Made by a program: the position numbers and the translations under genes. DNA of 22,140 bases from IMG/VR virus record IMGVR_UViG_2579779149_000003; one strand, given 5' to 3'. Positions 2,896 through 17,275 of the stretch are shown piece after piece. Below the pieces are notes generated by a model. The model was not told the DNA's origin and did not search any database. It was given only the letters and a program-made list of their open reading frames with translations. This stretch comes from a virus (lineage: Duplodnaviria > Heunggongvirae > Uroviricota > Caudoviricetes). How positions within the stretch are numbered: the stretch's first letter is position 1; every line of letters starts with the position of its first letter.

Positions 2896-6576
<3,681 letters not shown>

Positions 6577-9677: not shown

Positions 9678-9971
9678 ATGAAAAAAATGCTACTCGCTAC
9701 TGCGCTGGCCCTGCTTATTACAGGATGTGCTCAACAGACGTTTACTGTTCAAAACAAACCGGCAGCAGTAGCACCAAAGGAAACCATCACCCATCATTTC
9801 TTCGTTTCGGGAATTGGACAGGAGAAAACTGTTGATGCAGCCAAAATTTGTGGCGGCGCAGAAAATGTTGTTAAAACAGAAACCCAGCAAACATTCGTAA
9901 ATGGATTTCTCGGTTTTATTACTTTAGGCATTTATACTCCACTGGAAGCGCGTGTGTATTGCTCACAATAA
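9678..9971 (+). CDS. bor: Bor lipoprotein (serum-resistance lysogenic-conversion protein, 97 aa)
   Basis: MKKMLLATALALLITGCAQQTFTVQNKPAAVAPKETITHHFFVSGIGQ... matches lambda Bor; opposite strand to the lysis genes as in lambda. Confidence 0.95.
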   Translation: MKKMLLATALALLITGCAQQTFTVQNKPAAVAPKETITHHFFVSGIGQEKTVDAAKICGGAENVVKTETQQTFVNGFLGFITLGIYTPLEARVYCSQ

Positions 9972-10479: not shown

Positions 10480-10994
10480 CAGGCTAATGCGCTTTCCTGG
10501 TCACGACGAATAACCTGTCCATAGCAGTTATTTGAACGTATGCGGCAATCGCGCCCACCATCTTTTATCCACCAGCGAATCGCCTCGCATGCGCCCTTAC
10601 GATCACCGGCATTCAGCCGCTTATAAAACGTCGACGGGAAACACTTACCGGGGCCAATGTTATAGGGACAGAATGACGCTATACCCGCTTTTTGTGGTTC
10701 GGTCAGTGGTACTTTAATATTGCGCTCCACCCATGCCAGCGCCTTATCACGCTCAATGGCGTTGACCTGGTCGCATTTTTCCTTCGACAGTTTCATACCG
10801 GGAAAAACGGGTTTTCCATCCACCATCGTGGCACCCCGACAGATGGTCCAGATGCCGGACCCATCGCGGTATGCCGTTGTGTGGTTACCTTCTTTTTCAT
10901 CCAGAAACTGGTCGAGAATATCAGGCGCGGGCGCACCGACGGCAATCAGTGCCAGAACGGCAGCCGACAGGCCGTATCTGATTTTTGCGTTCAT
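10461..10994 (-). CDS. R: SAR endolysin (T4-lysozyme-type muramidase, RrrQ/R21-like, 177 aa)
   Basis: N-terminal signal-anchor-release-like segment [17 protein letters not shown] followed by the catalytic region [20 protein letters not shown]; resembles the E. coli Qin-prophage lysozyme RrrQ as I recall it. Confidence 0.88.
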
Positions 10995-11057
10995 GGATAT
11001 TTATCAGGATTTATCGGTTTCTGCCCACGGACAGGTTTATCTGTTCCGGTCAGTGAC

Positions 11058-11408
11058 TTAAGGTTGTGATTCCGGAGGAGTCTTCAGAGAACCAGTAATT
11101 CTTCCCGGTAGCTTTCCTTTGTAGGTTATCCATACATTCTGCGCCTCTAAAATTACGGGGCGCTTTTCCGGCGACTGCTCATCCCCTTCACATAACCCGG
11201 CAGCAACATCCAGGAAGACCTGTCTGATGCTCATTCTGGCTGCTGCCTCATAAAACTCCAGCGCGGCACCTTCAACACGGTCCAGCGAGATGTCCAGGTC
11301 AAAAATTTCACCGTCAAAGCGTTTTTTGTCCCGTAACGCTAAAGTTACCGTAACTTTATTCTCAAAATTGCGGATCCCTTTCACAATCAGTTCATAGTTT
11401 TGAGTCAT
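11058..11408 (-). CDS. Hypothetical protein between holin and endolysin (YdfR-like, possibly DUF1327), 116 aa
   Basis: Soluble 116-aa ORF in the position occupied by ydfR in Qin-type lysis cassettes; family assignment from gene position and vague recollection only. Confidence 0.5.
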   Translation of the reverse strand: MTQNYELIVKGIRNFENKVTVTLALRDKKRFDGEIFDLDISLDRVEGAALEFYEAAARMSIRQVFLDVAAGLCEGDEQSPEKRPVILEAQNVWITYKGKLPGRITGSLKTPPESQP

Positions 11409-11412
11409 TGAA

Positions 11413-11628
11413 TTACTCTCCCCGTGCAGCCTTACGCTTGTCTTCTCTGATTTTGAAGTACAGATTTGTCAGATAAGTCAGGAAGCCCAGAACCAGACTC
11501 CCAAGTACACCAATCGCAGCCCACTGTGACGGACTGACCTGATCAAGCCACTGTAAAAACCAGTAGCCAGCACTGCCTGCGGAGGTGCCGTAGGCAATGC
11601 CCGTTGAAATTTTGTCCATGGATTTCAT
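11413..11628 (-). CDS. S: Class II pinholin (phage 21 S21 / EssQ-like, 71 aa, dual-start motif MKSM)
   Basis: [71 protein letters not shown] matches the S21 pinholin: two TM segments and a Met-Lys-Ser-Met dual start. Confidence 0.9.
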
Positions 11629-11788
11629 AGCCTCACCTCCGCAAATAACGGATGGCGTAGTTTTACACTGAGAAATGAAAGGGATTTGAAAAGAAAAAAC
11701 CGCAAAAGCGGGCGAAACGATATATACAGAAAGGAAAGCACTCTATCCAACAAACCACCCACAGTTGATCGGAATAAAAGCAGAGTGC

Positions 11789-11861
11789 TTATGAATGATC
11801 GCCTGCCCGAAGGTTAGTATTTCTGCACAGCAATTTTGCAAAAAAAGGCGATCATTCATAA
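11789..11861. repeat. 16-bp perfect inverted repeat with 41-bp spacer (candidate RNA structure or protein-binding site)
   Basis: TTATGAATGATCGCCT at 11789..11804 and its reverse complement AGGCGATCATTCATAA at 11846..11861. Confidence 0.6.
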
Positions 11862-11920
11862 CTTAAACGTCTTTCAGTCACTCCGGGATTTCCCATCATC
11901 GCAGACTGAAAGACTCTGAC

Positions 11921-11995
<75 letters not shown>

Positions 11996-11998
11996 ATA

Positions 11999-12074
<76 letters not shown>

Positions 12075-12076
12075 AC

Positions 12077-12153
12077 TGGACCGCCACCGGGGACTCGAAC
12101 CTCGCACACTCAACTTAAAGGGTTGACGCTCTTTCCTGATGAGCTAGTGGCGG
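12077..12153 (-). tRNA. tRNA-like gene with atypical anticodon loop CCUUUAA (anticodon UUU by position, C at position 33); identity uncertain
   Basis: Acceptor CCGCCAC/GUGGCGG, D-arm GCUC...GAGC, anticodon stem UCAAC/GUUGA, T-arm CGAGG-UUCGAGU-CCCCG (one mismatch), encoded CCA. Packed 2 nt and 1 nt from neighbouring tRNAs. Confidence 0.45.
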
Positions 12154-12154
12154 T

Positions 12155-12230
12155 TGGTGGCCCTTGCTGGATTTGAACCAGCGACCTGGCGATTATGAGT
12201 CGCTCGCTCTCACCACTGAGCTAAAGGGCC
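12155..12230 (-). tRNA. ileZ: tRNA with anticodon CAU (IleX/IleZ-like tRNA-Ile2, or Met)
   Basis: Reverse complement GGCCCUUUAGCUCAGUGGUGAGAGCGAGCGACUCAUAAUCGCCAGGUCGCUGGUUCAAAUCCAGCAAGGGCCACCA closely resembles E. coli tRNA-Ile2 (ileX) and the ileZ gene of lambdoid prophages; T-arm GCUGG/CCAGC is perfect. Confidence 0.8.
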
Positions 12231-12350
12231 GGGCGCAGGATAATAACGTTACGAAATCAATGTTGCAAGCATTCAAAAATCACCTGGTTAAAAATCACCC
12301 TTATCTCCTCCACCAGCGCATTCACCATGTCTATCCGAGATAAGTGACAC

Positions 12351-12372
12351 AAAAAAACCGCTTGATGCGGGT
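12351..12372 (-). terminator. Weak terminator-like hairpin with U7 on the minus strand (possible tR'-like element of the late promoter region)
   Basis: Minus-strand RNA CCGC-AUCAA-GCGG followed by UUUUUUU (plus strand a-run 12351..12357). The stem is only 4-5 bp. Confidence 0.3.
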
Positions 12373-12419
12373 TTAAGTTGTGTGGCGAAGCGACCACTCT
12401 TAACAGATTAAGATAGTTT

Positions 12420-12449
12420 TTGCGTACGCGTTAGTGATTTTTTCATAAT
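12420..12449 (+). promoter_or_regulatory. Candidate sigma-70 promoter for the three-gene membrane cassette
   Basis: TTGCGT (12420..12425), 18-bp spacer, CATAAT (12444..12449), about 45 nt upstream of the proposed start at 12495. Confidence 0.3.
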
Positions 12450-12494
12450 TATCTGTATCCTGTGGCTATTTCTCTTGCGCAAAGGATGCTTTTG

Positions 12495-13373
12495 ATGACG
12501 CAGCAACTCGAAAACATGCCAATAACAGAAATCGAAATTGCCTACGGTGGAGAGGCATACGCAGATAATCAGATCGACGCGAAAACATTAGGCGAAGCCT
12601 TAACCTCTCTTAGTGCCCTGATTGAACACGCCGAAAAAATAATTAATGGCGAAACAGCAGAGCCGAAAGTCAACATCAAGGCAACAAAAGAAGGTTCATT
12701 TACTTTGCTTGTTGCTGTGATGGGGAGCATAAAAACTATTAACGCCCTTGGCCTCGTTGCAGGTGGTGGAGTTGCCGCAGGTGGCGTACTCGGGATAATC
12801 GAATGGCTCAAAGGGCGTAAAATCAGCTCCATTGTCGTCGATGAACAAAAAGATACAGCAGAAATCGAAGTGGATGGTGAGAAGGTTAAATGCAGTAACG
12901 ACATTCAAAAATTAATAACCAGTCCAATCATCCGAAAAGAACTGGATAAATTAATCTATAAACCCCTGCAGACTGAAAAACCATCCACGTTCTCAGTTTC
13001 ACAGCAGAAGCATAAGGTAGTCAGGGTGACGCAAGCTGAAGCAGTAAGTTTTAAAACTGCAAAATCCACCTTTGTCGAGAAAACGCACGTAACGACACGC
13101 CAAGCTAATGTACATTTTGCTAATGTTCGATTCAAGCAAGGCAAAAGCTGGGATATCATCCTGCCAAATGGCGAAGAAGTTAGCGCATCTATGAAAGATG
13201 AGGCTTTTCTTGAACGGGTTGAACACAACCAAGCAGCATTCTGTAAGGGTGATCTTTTTGTTGTAGAACTGACAGAAACAACAAAAGAAACAAATGGCGC
13301 GCTGTCTAAACCACGCTATAGTATTACTAAGGTTATACGCCACAGAGCGGCGGCAGATAGGAAACTACTTTAA
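12495..13373 (+). CDS. Hypothetical membrane-associated protein (about 292 aa), first gene of an AT-rich three-gene cassette
   Basis: ORF open from 12462 (GTG); the preferred start ATG 12495 (MTQQLENMPITEIEIAYGGE...) has AAGGA 9 nt upstream. Central glycine-rich hydrophobic segment SFTLLVAVMGSIKTINALGLVAGGGVAAGGVLGIIEWL flanked by soluble N- and C-terminal regions. No family recognised. Confidence 0.65.
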   Translation: MTQQLENMPITEIEIAYGGEAYADNQIDAKTLGEALTSLSALIEHAEKIINGETAEPKVNIKATKEGSFTLLVAVMGSIKTINALGLVAGGGVAAGGVLGIIEWLKGRKISSIVVDEQKDTAEIEVDGEKVKCSNDIQKLITSPIIRKELDKLIYKPLQTEKPSTFSVSQQKHKVVRVTQAEAVSFKTAKSTFVEKTHVTTRQANVHFANVRFKQGKSWDIILPNGEEVSASMKDEAFLERVEHNQAAFCKGDLFVVELTETTKETNGALSKPRYSITKVIRHRAAADRKLL

Positions 13374-13376
13374 ATC

Positions 13377-13622
13377 ATGTCAATCCTAAGCATTATGCTT
13401 TACATCACTGTATTCATGGCTGTCGCAGCGACGGTCAGATATGCTGTGCTTAGGTTCTTGGTTTGGGTAAAGCCGAATGCGTATATTGAACTAACCTACA
13501 CCGATCCTGAAGGCAGAACCGCTAAAAGGAAAGTCAGCGTTAGAAACGAAAATGACGCAGAAGAGTTGGCGCTACTGCTACGCGAACTCAAAACTCGCAA
13601 CGAAGCAAGTGCAGGAAGGTGA
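13377..13622 (+). CDS. Hypothetical small membrane protein (81 aa, one N-terminal TM helix)
   Basis: MSILSIMLYITVFMAVAATVRYAVLRFLVWV... then a charged tail; starts 3 nt after the stop of the upstream gene. Confidence 0.6.
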   Translation: MSILSIMLYITVFMAVAATVRYAVLRFLVWVKPNAYIELTYTDPEGRTAKRKVSVRNENDAEELALLLRELKTRNEASAGR

Positions 13623-14009
13623 ATGGCGAACACTAAATCCTACCTGGCAATGCAGGCATGGTTTACCACCCTTATCACTGCGGGATTGAATTTCCTTTTT
13701 GACTGGCTTCCTCAATTAGCCTTCTTCAAATCATTGGCGCCTGGAGCTGCTGTCGGCTTATCTCATGTGGTAATTCTTCTTATCGCTTACATAGGTTTGC
13801 CTACGCTTAATGATGTAAGAATGAAAAGGGAAATAAAAACGGCCAGAAAATTCATCACGAACTGCCTGGCCAACCCTAACCTAACACCAGACCAAATTGC
13901 GCACTACAACCAATGTCTTATCGATCTAGACAATAAGCTATTAAAAAACATAAATATTCGTATTGATGCTTTATCTGACGCCGAATCGAAAGCTCAAGCA
14001 AACGAGTAG
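13623..14009 (+). CDS. Hypothetical membrane protein (128 aa, two predicted TM helices)
   Basis: MANTKSYLAMQAWFTTLITAGLNFLFDWLPQLAFFKSLAPGAAVGLSHVVILLIAYIGL... then a soluble tail; the ATG directly abuts the upstream stop (tgaATG). Confidence 0.6.
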   Translation: MANTKSYLAMQAWFTTLITAGLNFLFDWLPQLAFFKSLAPGAAVGLSHVVILLIAYIGLPTLNDVRMKREIKTARKFITNCLANPNLTPDQIAHYNQCLIDLDNKLLKNINIRIDALSDAESKAQANE

Positions 14010-14022
14010 TAACAGTCATAAC

Positions 14023-14382
14023 TTATGATAGAATCAAGCATATACATCCATCAATAAAGCCTAATGCAGTTTGCAGCTCCTTTCTTATAGTTCCATCTGA
14101 GCACCTGCGTTTCTTCGCGATTGAGCGTAGAGAAACACCAATAACAAAGTGAGCTATGAGCAGCTCATATTCCTCTGGTTTATACTTTCGCAACCGAGCC
14201 ACACAACCGTCTATCATGATGCCTTCATCATCATCACACTGGAGACGTGACTTTTTGCCATGTGGCAAAAGCCCCTTGAAGCCCGCTGCTATCGGTTGCC
14301 AATCGACACCGCTATTTTCTGCTGCAGCCCATGCCCCCCAGCGATCTAAAACCTCATACATATCACGCCCCATTACCATCAC
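14023..14382 (-). CDS. Q: Late-gene antiterminator Q (QuuD/Phage_antitermQ-type, about 116-119 aa)
   Basis: MMVMGRDMYEVLDRWGAWAAAENSGVDWQPIAAGFKGLLPHGKKSRLQCDDD...CSDGTIRKELQTALGFIDG aligns by eye with DLP12 QuuD (ERWGAWAA, IAAGFKGL, KSRPQC, CSDG). The start may be the internal ATG at 14373. Confidence 0.85.
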   Translation of the reverse strand: MMVMGRDMYEVLDRWGAWAAAENSGVDWQPIAAGFKGLLPHGKKSRLQCDDDEGIMIDGCVARLRKYKPEEYELLIAHFVIGVSLRSIAKKRRCSDGTIRKELQTALGFIDGCICLILS

Positions 14383-16372: not shown

Positions 16373-16765
16373 CTACTGCCCTGTTTTAACGAAGTTTTTA
16401 AAGGAAACAACTGCCTGATAGGGGTTTGGTTGACAGCCAAACATATTATCGCAAAAAGGCTTGATGAAAATTCTTGAGGATCCATCTTCATTTGGCATTT
16501 TACTCACTTGATAAGCGAGGAATGGACTATTTGGAGAGGGATTATAAGTGGAAATTAGCGTGTCTGTCGCCGTTTGAATTTTCCATGAGGAATTATTAGC
16601 CAACCAGAATTGCGCTCGTTTCCAATAAAAGTCACATTGCTTTTCATCATTACATGTTAGTGGCTTCATTGCTTCTGCTTTCAACGCTGGATCGACCTTT
16701 GCTGCACACCCTCCCAACATTACTGTTGCAATCATTACACCTGCGACTAAAACAAGTTTCTTCAT
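16373..16765 (-). CDS. Putative lipoprotein (130 aa), AT-rich moron
   Basis: MKKLVLVAGVMIATVMLGGCAAK... has a signal peptide with canonical lipobox LGGC; flanked by terminator-like hairpins sharing the 13-mer CGCCGAAGCGGGT. No family recognised. Confidence 0.7.
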   Translation of the reverse strand: MKKLVLVAGVMIATVMLGGCAAKVDPALKAEAMKPLTCNDEKQCDFYWKRAQFWLANNSSWKIQTATDTLISTYNPSPNSPFLAYQVSKMPNEDGSSRIFIKPFCDNMFGCQPNPYQAVVSFKNFVKTGQ

Positions 16766-16908: not shown

Positions 16909-17064
16909 TTACTCCTCAGGTTCGTAAGCTGTGAAGACAGCGACCTCCGTCTGGCCGGTTCGGATTCGTACCTCGCAGAGGTCTTTCCTCGTTACCAGTG
17001 CCGTCACAATGACGGTTAAACAGATGACGATCAGGGCGATTAACATCGCCTTTTGCTGCTTCAT
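16909..17064 (-). CDS. hokD: Hok-family type I toxin (HokD/RelF-like, 51 aa)
   Basis: From the internal ATG at 17064: MKQQKAMLIALIVICLTVIVTALVTRKDLCEVRIRTGQTEVAVFTAYEPEE, recognised as HokD/RelF. The in-frame upstream extension (ORF from 17121) is probably leader sequence. Confidence 0.85.
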   Translation of the reverse strand: MKQQKAMLIALIVICLTVIVTALVTRKDLCEVRIRTGQTEVAVFTAYEPEE

Positions 17065-17275
17065 AGCCTGCTTCTCCTTGCCTTTCGGCACGTAAGAGGC
17101 TAACCTAGATTTGCCGTTCATAGATTGAGCCTCAGATTAATGTTAAGCGTCTTGCAGGACGCGTAATGTTAACTGGGGCTTTTCTCTATCTGCCTTTGGT
17201 GTTCATGCCTGAGACAGATAGCCTCAAGCACCCGCAGCCATTCTACTTAACTCCCGTTACCTCGCCAATATAAAA

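Follow-up and report, generated by a model that had tools for sequence, protein, structure and literature searches.

What is the function of a three-gene operon that lies, on the opposite strand, between the antiterminator gene Q and the lysis genes of a lambdoid prophage? The question is raised by the viral record IMGVR_UViG_2579779149_000003 (Caudoviricetes), a stretch of 22,140 nucleotides which we call the window and which is filled by a lambdoid E. coli prophage whose genes read on the minus strand. An earlier note, made from the sequence alone, had described three tightly linked antisense open reading frames of 292, 81 and 128 codons, the first two separated by 3 nt and the last two with abutting stop and start codons. 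These are indeed present as plus-strand genes, here called A, B and C, between tRNA-Met (which ends at 12230) and Q, and the flanks are as claimed, with Q on one side and the tRNA and lysis genes on the other, all on the minus strand. We tentatively favour the reading that A-B-C is a mobile accessory operon of prophages whose products act at the inner membrane, either in defence against phages or in superinfection exclusion, as a functional analogue but not a homologue of RexAB.

The insertion can be seen by comparison with the prophage of E. coli Combat2C1 (locus L041), whose Q is 95% identical and whose lysis module is complete but which lacks the cassette. There the sequence corresponding to 12446 down to 12351 of the window (minus strand) stands directly after the Q stop codon and reads AAAAAATCACTAACGCGTACGCAAAA ... 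TGTTAAGAGTGG ... CTTCGCCAC, followed by the terminator hairpin and its T-run. Since the flanks of the cassette are contiguous in Combat2C1, the cassette represents 1.57 kb of inserted DNA, which separates the Q stop codon from a conserved leader/terminator block. The insert is AT-richer than its surroundings, as had been noticed (G+C content 0.433, compared with 0.496 in the window as a whole and 0.522 in the adjoining 2 kb on the Q side). Q is convergent with the cassette, only 13 nt separating the stop codons of C and Q, and the genes for RusA and DUF968 come after Q on the minus strand.

A, B and C are real genes under strong purifying selection: in comparison with copies differing by 10–19% in DNA sequence, dN/dS is 0.04–0.08 for the three genes (0.05–0.06 for A and 0.06–0.08 for B). 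B and C diverge faster than A, with dN values of 0.32–0.35 versus 0.10 in the same pair. Translation of A probably starts at the ATG at 12495, which has the Shine–Dalgarno sequence AAAGGA 8 nt upstream and is identical to the RefSeq start; an alternative GTG start at 12462 would yield 303 residues. In this allele the three genes happen to share one reading frame (TAA plus one codon, then TGA). Stop-codon readthrough from A to C was nevertheless rejected and the shared frame regarded as a coincidence, because other alleles have differing frames and overlapping genes (ATGA). We note an annotation gap for B, which lacks a RefSeq/PGAP annotation in identical sequence despite purifying selection and its presence in all close loci that were read.

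None of the three proteins had been recognised in the earlier note, a statement that we have to revise. A matches the PADLOC model PDLC05015 of the candidate defence family PDC-S42 (E-value 3.3e-53, 179 bits), residues 22–299 aligning to positions 4–294 of the 302-position profile over 278 residues; it also matches the NCBIfam equivalog model NF053583 with 225.3 bits (cut-off 60) and belongs to phrog_3243. B and C fall into phrog_27630 and phrog_26468, respectively, both of unknown function, and neither was matched by a PADLOC model, so that the PADLOC check proposed for this locus was successful for A only. PDC-S42 is one of 145 candidates collected from genes that lie inside BREX, DISARM and type I restriction–modification loci, is given as a single-gene candidate by Payne et al., and is described by these authors as untested (bioRxiv 10.1101/2024.01.29.577857). 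The A family is large: an exhaustive profile search yielded 2915 representatives at 50% identity (E ≤1e-3), nearly all of them 285–315 residues long. The supplementary material of the PADLOC-embedding, DefensePredictor, EACC1 and Kaur papers contains no mention of the family.

Pfam at standard thresholds returned no match for A, B or C, and a PDB sequence search with the A profile gave no credible match. With relaxed limits the N-terminal 80–175 residues of 17 of 48 A-family members match DUF7946 (PF25678) colinearly from the N-terminus (E ≤1); the best match, that of member P0036, reaches 25.6 bits (E 1.4e-5) and remains below the gathering threshold of 27. The LAPAL motif after which NF053583 is named is not kept in A, where the corresponding position in helix 1 reads T-L-G-E-A-L (LGEAL). 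ELAPAL is found in distant members, for example P0101 and P0144, and this LAPAL branch is without B and C.

B and C homologues follow A in the same order and on the same strand in 40/40 close loci, down to an A identity of 37%, and three further Citrobacter-type close loci carry the triad as well. The same architecture was found in 14 distant loci with A identities of 23–32%, located in Pasteurellaceae prophages, a marine phage, a toxin–antitoxin-rich island and a Vibrio Vinavirales element. Recognition of the distant triads relied on the sizes of the genes and on their hydrophobic segments; with the B profile the Avibacterium B is found (E 4e-6) but no other distant B tested, and the C profile finds none. 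The common plan is an A protein of ~290 residues, a protein of ~80–90 residues with one transmembrane segment and a protein of ~120–160 residues with one or two. In the window, as in more than 50 loci, B and C come after A, and the triad is thus conserved as a unit across its branch. In the far LAPAL branch, and in Lactobacillus phage A2 (ORF19), the A-type gene occurs singly. Evidently A can exist by itself, B and C having been added in one large branch of the family. In the Vibrio element PQ189332 (Vinavirales, 14 kb, non-tailed and tectivirus-like) an A-like gene and genes for 83 and 161 residues occupy 3504–5108 beside the integrase gene; its triad architecture was judged on size only, and the cassette thereby crosses viral realms.

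The positions of the triad are informative. Of 5426 complete E. coli genomes, 37 carry the cassette in the slot between Q and the holin gene, on the opposite strand, and the same arrangement is seen in Citrobacter-type phages and for a copy that is only 37% identical. Four of the 5426 genomes have a 52% identical A-B-C copy between hokD and DUF968 which is co-directional with the early genes, and the antisense orientation is therefore not a trait of the cassette as such, contrary to what the earlier note implied. Other triads lie at the ends of primase- or resolvase-bearing satellite islands and of a P4-like element, beside tail genes in one case, and in another among toxin genes (RelB/YafQ, ParE and Ibs). 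Lambdoid phages of Avibacterium and Glaesserella and from metagenomes have the triad directly after cI and in the same orientation, divergent from cro; in the marine phage it is near cI with one opposite-strand gene in between. The position downstream of cI is held by rexA-rexB in phage lambda. Homology of the large or the membrane protein to RexA/RexB was considered and rejected (hhalign probabilities of 0.4% and 0.2%), in agreement with the earlier note, which had seen no likeness to these proteins. No restriction–modification or BREX genes flank the cassette in the window. Among sequenced phages megablast found no isolate with the cassette and tblastn only four distant relatives.

A sample of prophages with this Q family revealed seven types of cargo in the slot; six of them are opposite-strand operons between the Q stop codon and the conserved block (Table 1). 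Such a tabulation had been proposed beforehand, and together with the empty site next to a 95% identical Q, the presence of at least six other cargo types bears out the view of an accessory cassette in a variable post-Q slot. The antisense cargoes other than A-B-C come from E. coli prophages (L043/L056, L044, L057/L059, L058 and L060). Three of them are unannotated and are further candidate defence systems. The seventh type, an ADP-ribosyltransferase/AB5 toxin pair, lies beyond the terminator and reads in the direction of the late genes. It is seen in Combat2C1, where a scabin-related ADP-ribosyltransferase (3049–3777) and a subtilase-family AB5 B subunit (2491–2916) form a toxin moron in the stx position. 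The stxAB genes are themselves cargo ("moron") of the Q-to-lysis slot in lambdoid phages.

The cassette had been credited with a promoter of its own. A candidate sigma-70 promoter is indeed present, but its -35 element TTGCGT is located in the conserved phage block and only the -10 element CATAAT lies at the edge of the insert. In 11/11 antisense-cargo loci TTGCGT is followed at a distance of 17–18 nt by nAnnnT, and in 8/11 by TAnnnT, for which the background is 0.024 per position. The -10 DNA comes from different cargoes, yet the promoter geometry is kept across the antisense loci. We therefore rejected a cassette-borne promoter, the -35 element being backbone DNA common to the other antisense cargoes; rather, the block appears to carry a resident outward promoter driving whatever cargo fills the slot. 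The outward promoter is present in the empty site too, where it would read antisense into Q. In the window there is no terminator between the stop codon of C and Q.

The location of the late promoter decides what the cassette is antisense to. Canonically, the late unit directly after Q consists of promoter, pause element and terminator (Q21 paper). In the window the candidate block and the terminator are 1.57 kb away from Q, whereas they are contiguous with Q in the empty site. We compared the ~95-bp block at 12351–12446 (minus strand), consisting of ACTAACGCGTACGCAAAA, ~12 nt, TGTTAAGAGTGGTnnCTTCGCCAC and then the intrinsic terminator, with L041, L044 and L053–L060. In every case the block is on the far side of the antisense cargo; it stays with the terminator and never with Q. 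Because the block always accompanies the terminator and never Q, PR' and the Q-binding site are probably in the block rather than in the 3' end of Q, where a rival promoter-like sequence is found (Table 1). The direct repeat ACGC-GT-ACGC within the block is a candidate Q-binding site. With PR' in the block, the cassette would lie between Q and PR', outside the late transcript and antisense only to early transcription through Q. The earlier proposal that the operon is antisense to Q-dependent late transcription would then hold in so far as the operon is convergent with Q, but not for the late transcript itself, which probably starts beyond the cassette. Rfam searches on the whole window gave no match in the cassette or in the leader block.

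The sequence between the block and the tRNAs appears to have a history of its own. Positions 12231–12375 show ~92% identity with the region between Q and the tRNAs in PPompW/Stx2a-type phages, whose Q differs (229 residues); the Q of the same size in L004 belongs to PF06323. This stretch contains a promoter-like sequence directly upstream of the tRNAs (TTGCAA, 17 nt, TATTAT), and a 36-residue "antiterminator" fragment is annotated within it by RefSeq in some genomes. Different Q modules appear to have been joined by recombination at the terminator.

The earlier note spoke of a membrane-protein operon. Using Kyte–Doolittle hydrophobicity in 19-residue windows (KD19), we find a hydrophobic segment in each protein; A, however, is according to its AlphaFold2 model (pLDDT 82.6, pTM 0.74) mostly a soluble alpha/beta protein with one hydrophobic segment and not a typical polytopic membrane protein. 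The N-terminal part is modelled as a beta-alpha-beta-beta unit and the middle part as beta/alpha, followed by an OB-like C-terminal domain; residues 79–105, which contain the glycine-rich segment, form a helix-loop-helix of low confidence. A fold search in BFVD with the A model retrieved only uncharacterised phage proteins and a DUF6575 protein with a TM-score of ~0.35. The hydrophobic peak of A comprises residues 84–102 (KD19 1.97). The glycine-rich segment that had been pointed out, ALGLVAGGGVAAGGVLGIIEWL, holds G86xxxG90 and in addition the glycine zipper G92xxxG96xxxG100. In 175 of 178 A-family members the hydrophobic peak falls within residues 60–125, with a median small-residue fraction of 0.37. 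A small-residue-rich hydrophobic segment at a fixed position is thus a hallmark of the A family.

This helix resembles EACC1, which is described as a transmembrane helix with a central glycine patch and short alpha+beta flanks, has ~107 residues and is encoded beside a caspase-like protease, chiefly in actinobacteria and other multicellular bacteria (PMC7159879). More recently EACC1 was reported to be a pore-forming death effector released by protease cleavage (preprint 10.1101/2025.11.14.688446). In lenient Pfam searches A residues 71–140 are colinear with positions 38–103 of EACC1 (PF19953), the toxic C-terminal part; the sub-threshold alignment in A itself covers residues 81–140. Such matches were obtained for 4 of the 11 A members inspected, with E-values of 0.001–0.1. 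As in EACC1, residues 84–105 of A are predicted as a helix in whose centre glycine and small residues cluster, and beta strands stand on both sides. We regard the link to EACC1 as a lead rather than as membership.

B has its hydrophobic segment at residues 2–20 (KD19 2.18). In C the hydrophobic segment spans residues 41–59 (KD19 2.12), and a weaker one is found at ~8–30. The model of C (pLDDT 71) has helices at residues 3–28, 30–57, 62–82 and 89–127, and we picture the modelled protein as a membrane hairpin of two helices and a cytoplasmic hairpin of two further helices. The first helix, SYLAMQAWFTTLITAGL, is the most conserved part of C and contains several invariant polar residues. Lenient Pfam searches with five B and five C orthologues gave inconsistent noise only, and a fold search with the C model matched no solved structure.

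How might such an operon work? In the lysogen it would be transcribed from the sigma-70 promoter with its -35 element in the phage block, and translation of A, B and C would be coupled. B and C would be located in the inner membrane with their domains facing the cytoplasm. A would be cytoplasmic or peripheral, and its N-terminal alpha/beta part and OB-like domain may keep the EACC1-like glycine-zipper helix latent. Once a cue from the incoming phage is perceived by A, or by way of B and C, this helix would be freed and could then insert into the membrane and oligomerise, so that the membrane potential collapses and the infection aborts. During lytic growth of the prophage itself, convergent transcription through Q would reduce expression of the cassette, and Q binding to the block, which overlaps the cassette -35 element, may lower it further.

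The defence reading is supported because A matches PDC-S42, a family drawn from genes embedded in BREX, DISARM and restriction–modification loci, because distant triads take the rexAB position downstream of cI, and because the other antisense cargoes of the slot include matches to NsnA/PD-T4-2_A and PDC-M53. The proposal of the earlier note, an exclusion or abortive-infection module, thus gains from the genomic context, above all from the distant triads directly downstream of or near cI, its functional part being an inference. Several points weigh against our reading. The PDC-S42 family has no tested member, the function of the cassette is inferred throughout, and searches for PDC-S42, the LAPAL motif, WP_000193722 and DUF7946 brought up no paper on the A family. 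The context cannot separate abortive infection, blocking of injection and non-defence lysogenic conversion. For B and C, the assignment of roles is based on topology alone. The EACC1 scores (15.6 bits for A of the window, 18.3 for P0006, 19.4 for P0010 and 13.0 for P0036) are all below the gathering threshold of 23.6, the matching stretch is hydrophobic and of low complexity, and no protease domain was found in A, B, C or the neighbouring genes, although EACC1 activation depends on a protease; the missed threshold and the missing protease are the reasons why EACC1 remains a lead only. Furthermore, the A proteins of Pasteurellaceae have no strongly hydrophobic segment.

Several other functions have been weighed against the defence reading. 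It is rather unlikely that the operon acts in non-lethal superinfection exclusion, with B and C and their cytoplasmic partner A blocking DNA entry or an early step at the inner membrane while the host survives, by analogy with P22 SieA, T4 Imm and HK97 gp15. Such a function would agree with the conservation of two small inner-membrane proteins alongside A, with the lysogen-type positions including the one downstream of cI and with the faster divergence of B and C, as expected of parts that touch variable phage components. However, the A-family members without B and C (LAPAL branch, ORF19 of phage A2) and the origin of the PADLOC set in BREX and restriction–modification embedding suggest that A itself carries the activity, and the conserved glycine-zipper helix of A suits an effector better than a plug. 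An addiction or toxin–antitoxin-like membrane module, in which A or C would be a toxin held by the others and which would stabilise the prophage or island or regulate the host, seems improbable to us. Three-gene conservation with an OB-like domain would be unusual for a type I or II toxin–antitoxin system, and conflict with phages is indicated by the recurrent rex-like and hotspot positions as well as by the PADLOC derivation. Such a module would be in line with the tight translational coupling and the small membrane proteins, and also with the distant triad among toxin genes and the hok/sok locus nearby in the prophage of the window, but toxin–antitoxin and defence islands overlap, so that this context does not discriminate.

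Since the cassette adjoins the lysis genes, between Q and holin, one may also think of a modulator of the phage's own lysis or late-gene timing, either antiholin-like or a Q-antisense device. Transcripts of the cassette would run antisense into Q, which follows after only 13 nt without a terminator, and those from the outward promoter would do so in the empty site as well. An anti-Q RNA effect would, however, be that of the slot promoter and not of these proteins; unrelated cargoes fill the same slot, and the triad is also found downstream of cI, in the hokD-DUF968 slot, at the ends of tail modules, in satellites and in a non-tailed element. We hold this modulator for quite improbable, more so than an addiction module. 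That A is a virion structural protein with B and C as assembly factors is very improbable, even though the title of NF053583 is "LAPAL motif-containing putative phage structural protein" and A exceeds the cut-off of 60 with 225 bits. The Combat2C1 prophage, with its closely similar Q and complete lysis module, does without the cassette, as do all but 37 + 4 of the 5426 complete E. coli genomes; the cassette is outside all structural modules and sometimes in the cI operon; it is found in satellites and in the Vinavirales element, whose virion architecture is that of a different viral realm; and the fold searches with A revealed no similarity to virion proteins. The varied positions, the two viral realms and the empty site thus argue against the structural label of NCBIfam, which is without support from the context and disfavoured.

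Within the defence reading a more specific version can be formulated, which taken as a whole we consider unlikely. The operon would be a Rex-type module with a new latent pore-former, the EACC1-like helix of A being unlocked without a protease, either by a ligand at the OB-like domain or by the membrane partners. The module would dock between Q and PR', where the outward promoter would overlap the Q-binding element, so that Q would switch the defence cargo off at late commitment.

Table 1. Features of the cassette and its surroundings in the window, and antisense cargoes of the slot
Feature	Position	Strand	Remarks
Gene A	12495..13373	+	292 aa; PADLOC PDC-S42, NCBIfam NF053583 "LAPAL", phrog_3243
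Glycine-rich hydrophobic helix of A	12744..12809 (codons 84-105)	+	ALGLVAGGGVAAGGVLGIIEWL; candidate membrane-inserting element
C-terminal domain of A, OB-like	13077..13346 (codons 195-284)	+	beta1-beta2-beta3-alpha-beta4-beta5
Gene B	13377..13622	+	81 aa; N-terminal transmembrane helix and basic C-terminal domain of ~50 aa; phrog_27630
Gene C	13623..14009	+	128 aa; two predicted membrane helices, then cytoplasmic helical hairpin; phrog_26468
Candidate sigma-70 promoter	12420..12449	+	-35 TTGCGT 12420-12425, 18 nt, -10 CATAAT 12444-12449
Imperfect 11-bp repeat TCATAAnTTAT, left copy	12443..12453	.	flanks insert
Imperfect 11-bp repeat TCATAAnTTAT, right copy	14016..14026	.	overlaps Q stop codon
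Conserved Q-associated block	12376..12446	-	AAAAAATCACTAACGCGTACGCAAAA, ~12 nt, TGTTAAGAGTGGTCGCTTCGCCAC; candidate PR'/Q-binding element/pause region
Intrinsic-terminator-like hairpin	12351..12374	-	AAACCCGCATCAAGCGG then T7; tR'-like; common to cassette-free relatives and PPompW phages
Rival PR' site, promoter-like	14025..14054	-	TTGATG, 18 nt, TATCAT; inside 3' end of Q; -10 not conserved in diverged copies
Antiterminator Q	14023..14382	-	PF06530, 3.8e-45; remote Q21 relative (E 0.002)
Four tRNAs (Gly-TCC, Thr-TGT, Lys-TTT, CAT-anticodon Met/Ile2)	11921..12230	-	between terminator and lysis genes
P21-type class II holin S	11413..11628	-	first gene of lysis cassette
Antisense slot cargo			A-B-C
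Antisense slot cargo			427-aa protein; no PADLOC or informative annotation
Antisense slot cargo			DUF262 (PADLOC NsnA, PD-T4-2_A; 5.6e-46) and HEPN nuclease
Antisense slot cargo			nucleoid-associated protein and ~400-aa protein; no PADLOC or informative annotation
Antisense slot cargo			PDC-M53 A and B (PADLOC)
Antisense slot cargo			87-aa and 247-aa pair; no PADLOC or informative annotation

The window as a whole has the gene order HK97-type head/terminase genes, Bor, lysis genes, four tRNAs, Q, RusA, DUF968, hokD and immunity region. The tRNA with the CAT anticodon (12155–12230, minus strand) is assigned to methionine by ARAGORN, and the identical gene is annotated by RefSeq as tRNA-Ile of the lysidine type. 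A gene for a lipoprotein of the Bor/Iss family (9678–9971, plus strand) adjoins the Rz/lysozyme genes and is a second antisense moron of the window; bor is an antisense moron in lambda as well. Beside hokD, at 17059–17233 and ~16535–16690 (both minus strand), an Rfam match to sok with 110 bits marks a hok/sok type I toxin–antitoxin locus. It lies in the nin-like region, the neighbourhood in which the 52% identical A-B-C allele sits in other prophages. In the sister prophage L001, which has the same cassette, the opposite strand in the vicinity of hokD (10883–12377) encodes a Ser/Thr protein kinase together with a PP2C phosphatase, possibly a further accessory or defence pair.

That the family is a listed defence candidate was already known, and defence cargo in a lambdoid hotspot is a familiar kind of element. 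New are the three-gene architecture, the relatives in the rex position, the EACC1-like helix and the layout of the cargo slot next to Q. With its many members the A family has no tested one; if A works with two membrane proteins, the way in which PDC-S42 is cloned and tested should change, since a single-gene construct may be inactive or toxic. A Rex-like but non-homologous analogue in the same position, with the glycine-zipper helix as a handle, would be useful comparative material. Should the link to EACC1 be true, this effector would extend beyond protease-coupled systems and there would be a non-proteolytic route to the pore. Anyone looking for new cargo in E. coli prophages has a practical site in the slot that Q and the leader block enclose and that comes with a resident outward promoter; several of its cargoes carry no annotation at all.

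Rex is among the oldest phage-exclusion systems; in the textbook model it depolarises the membrane upon superinfection, the outcome proposed here as well, and its mechanism is still debated. Like RexA/RexB of lambda, the operon of this temperate phage combines a protein of ~280–290 residues without predicted enzymatic domain with small inner-membrane proteins, and distant triads occupy the exact rex position downstream of cI, co-oriented with it. In contrast to rexAB, the cassette of the window is located after Q and not downstream of cI. A belongs to the PDC-S42 family (model PDLC05015), yet here it heads a conserved three-gene prophage operon, whereas PDC-S42 was defined as a single gene embedded in BREX, DISARM and restriction–modification loci. 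It is above the cut-off of NF053583 but has LGEAL instead of LAPAL, and its family shows a colinear N-terminal match to DUF7946, a family without known function, which stays below the cut-off. With EACC1 it shares a hydrophobic helix of glycine and small residues between alpha+beta elements; unlike EACC1, however, A is a protein of 292 residues with extra domains, two membrane-protein partners and no protease neighbour. Finally, A-B-C shares the hypervariable slot and the flanking Q and leader block with the toxin cargoes of the stxAB and ADP-ribosyltransferase/AB5 type. The toxin genes are found after the terminator and are co-directional with the late genes, hence expressed on induction, whereas A-B-C and the defence-like cargoes are placed before the block, on the opposite strand and behind an outward-facing promoter.

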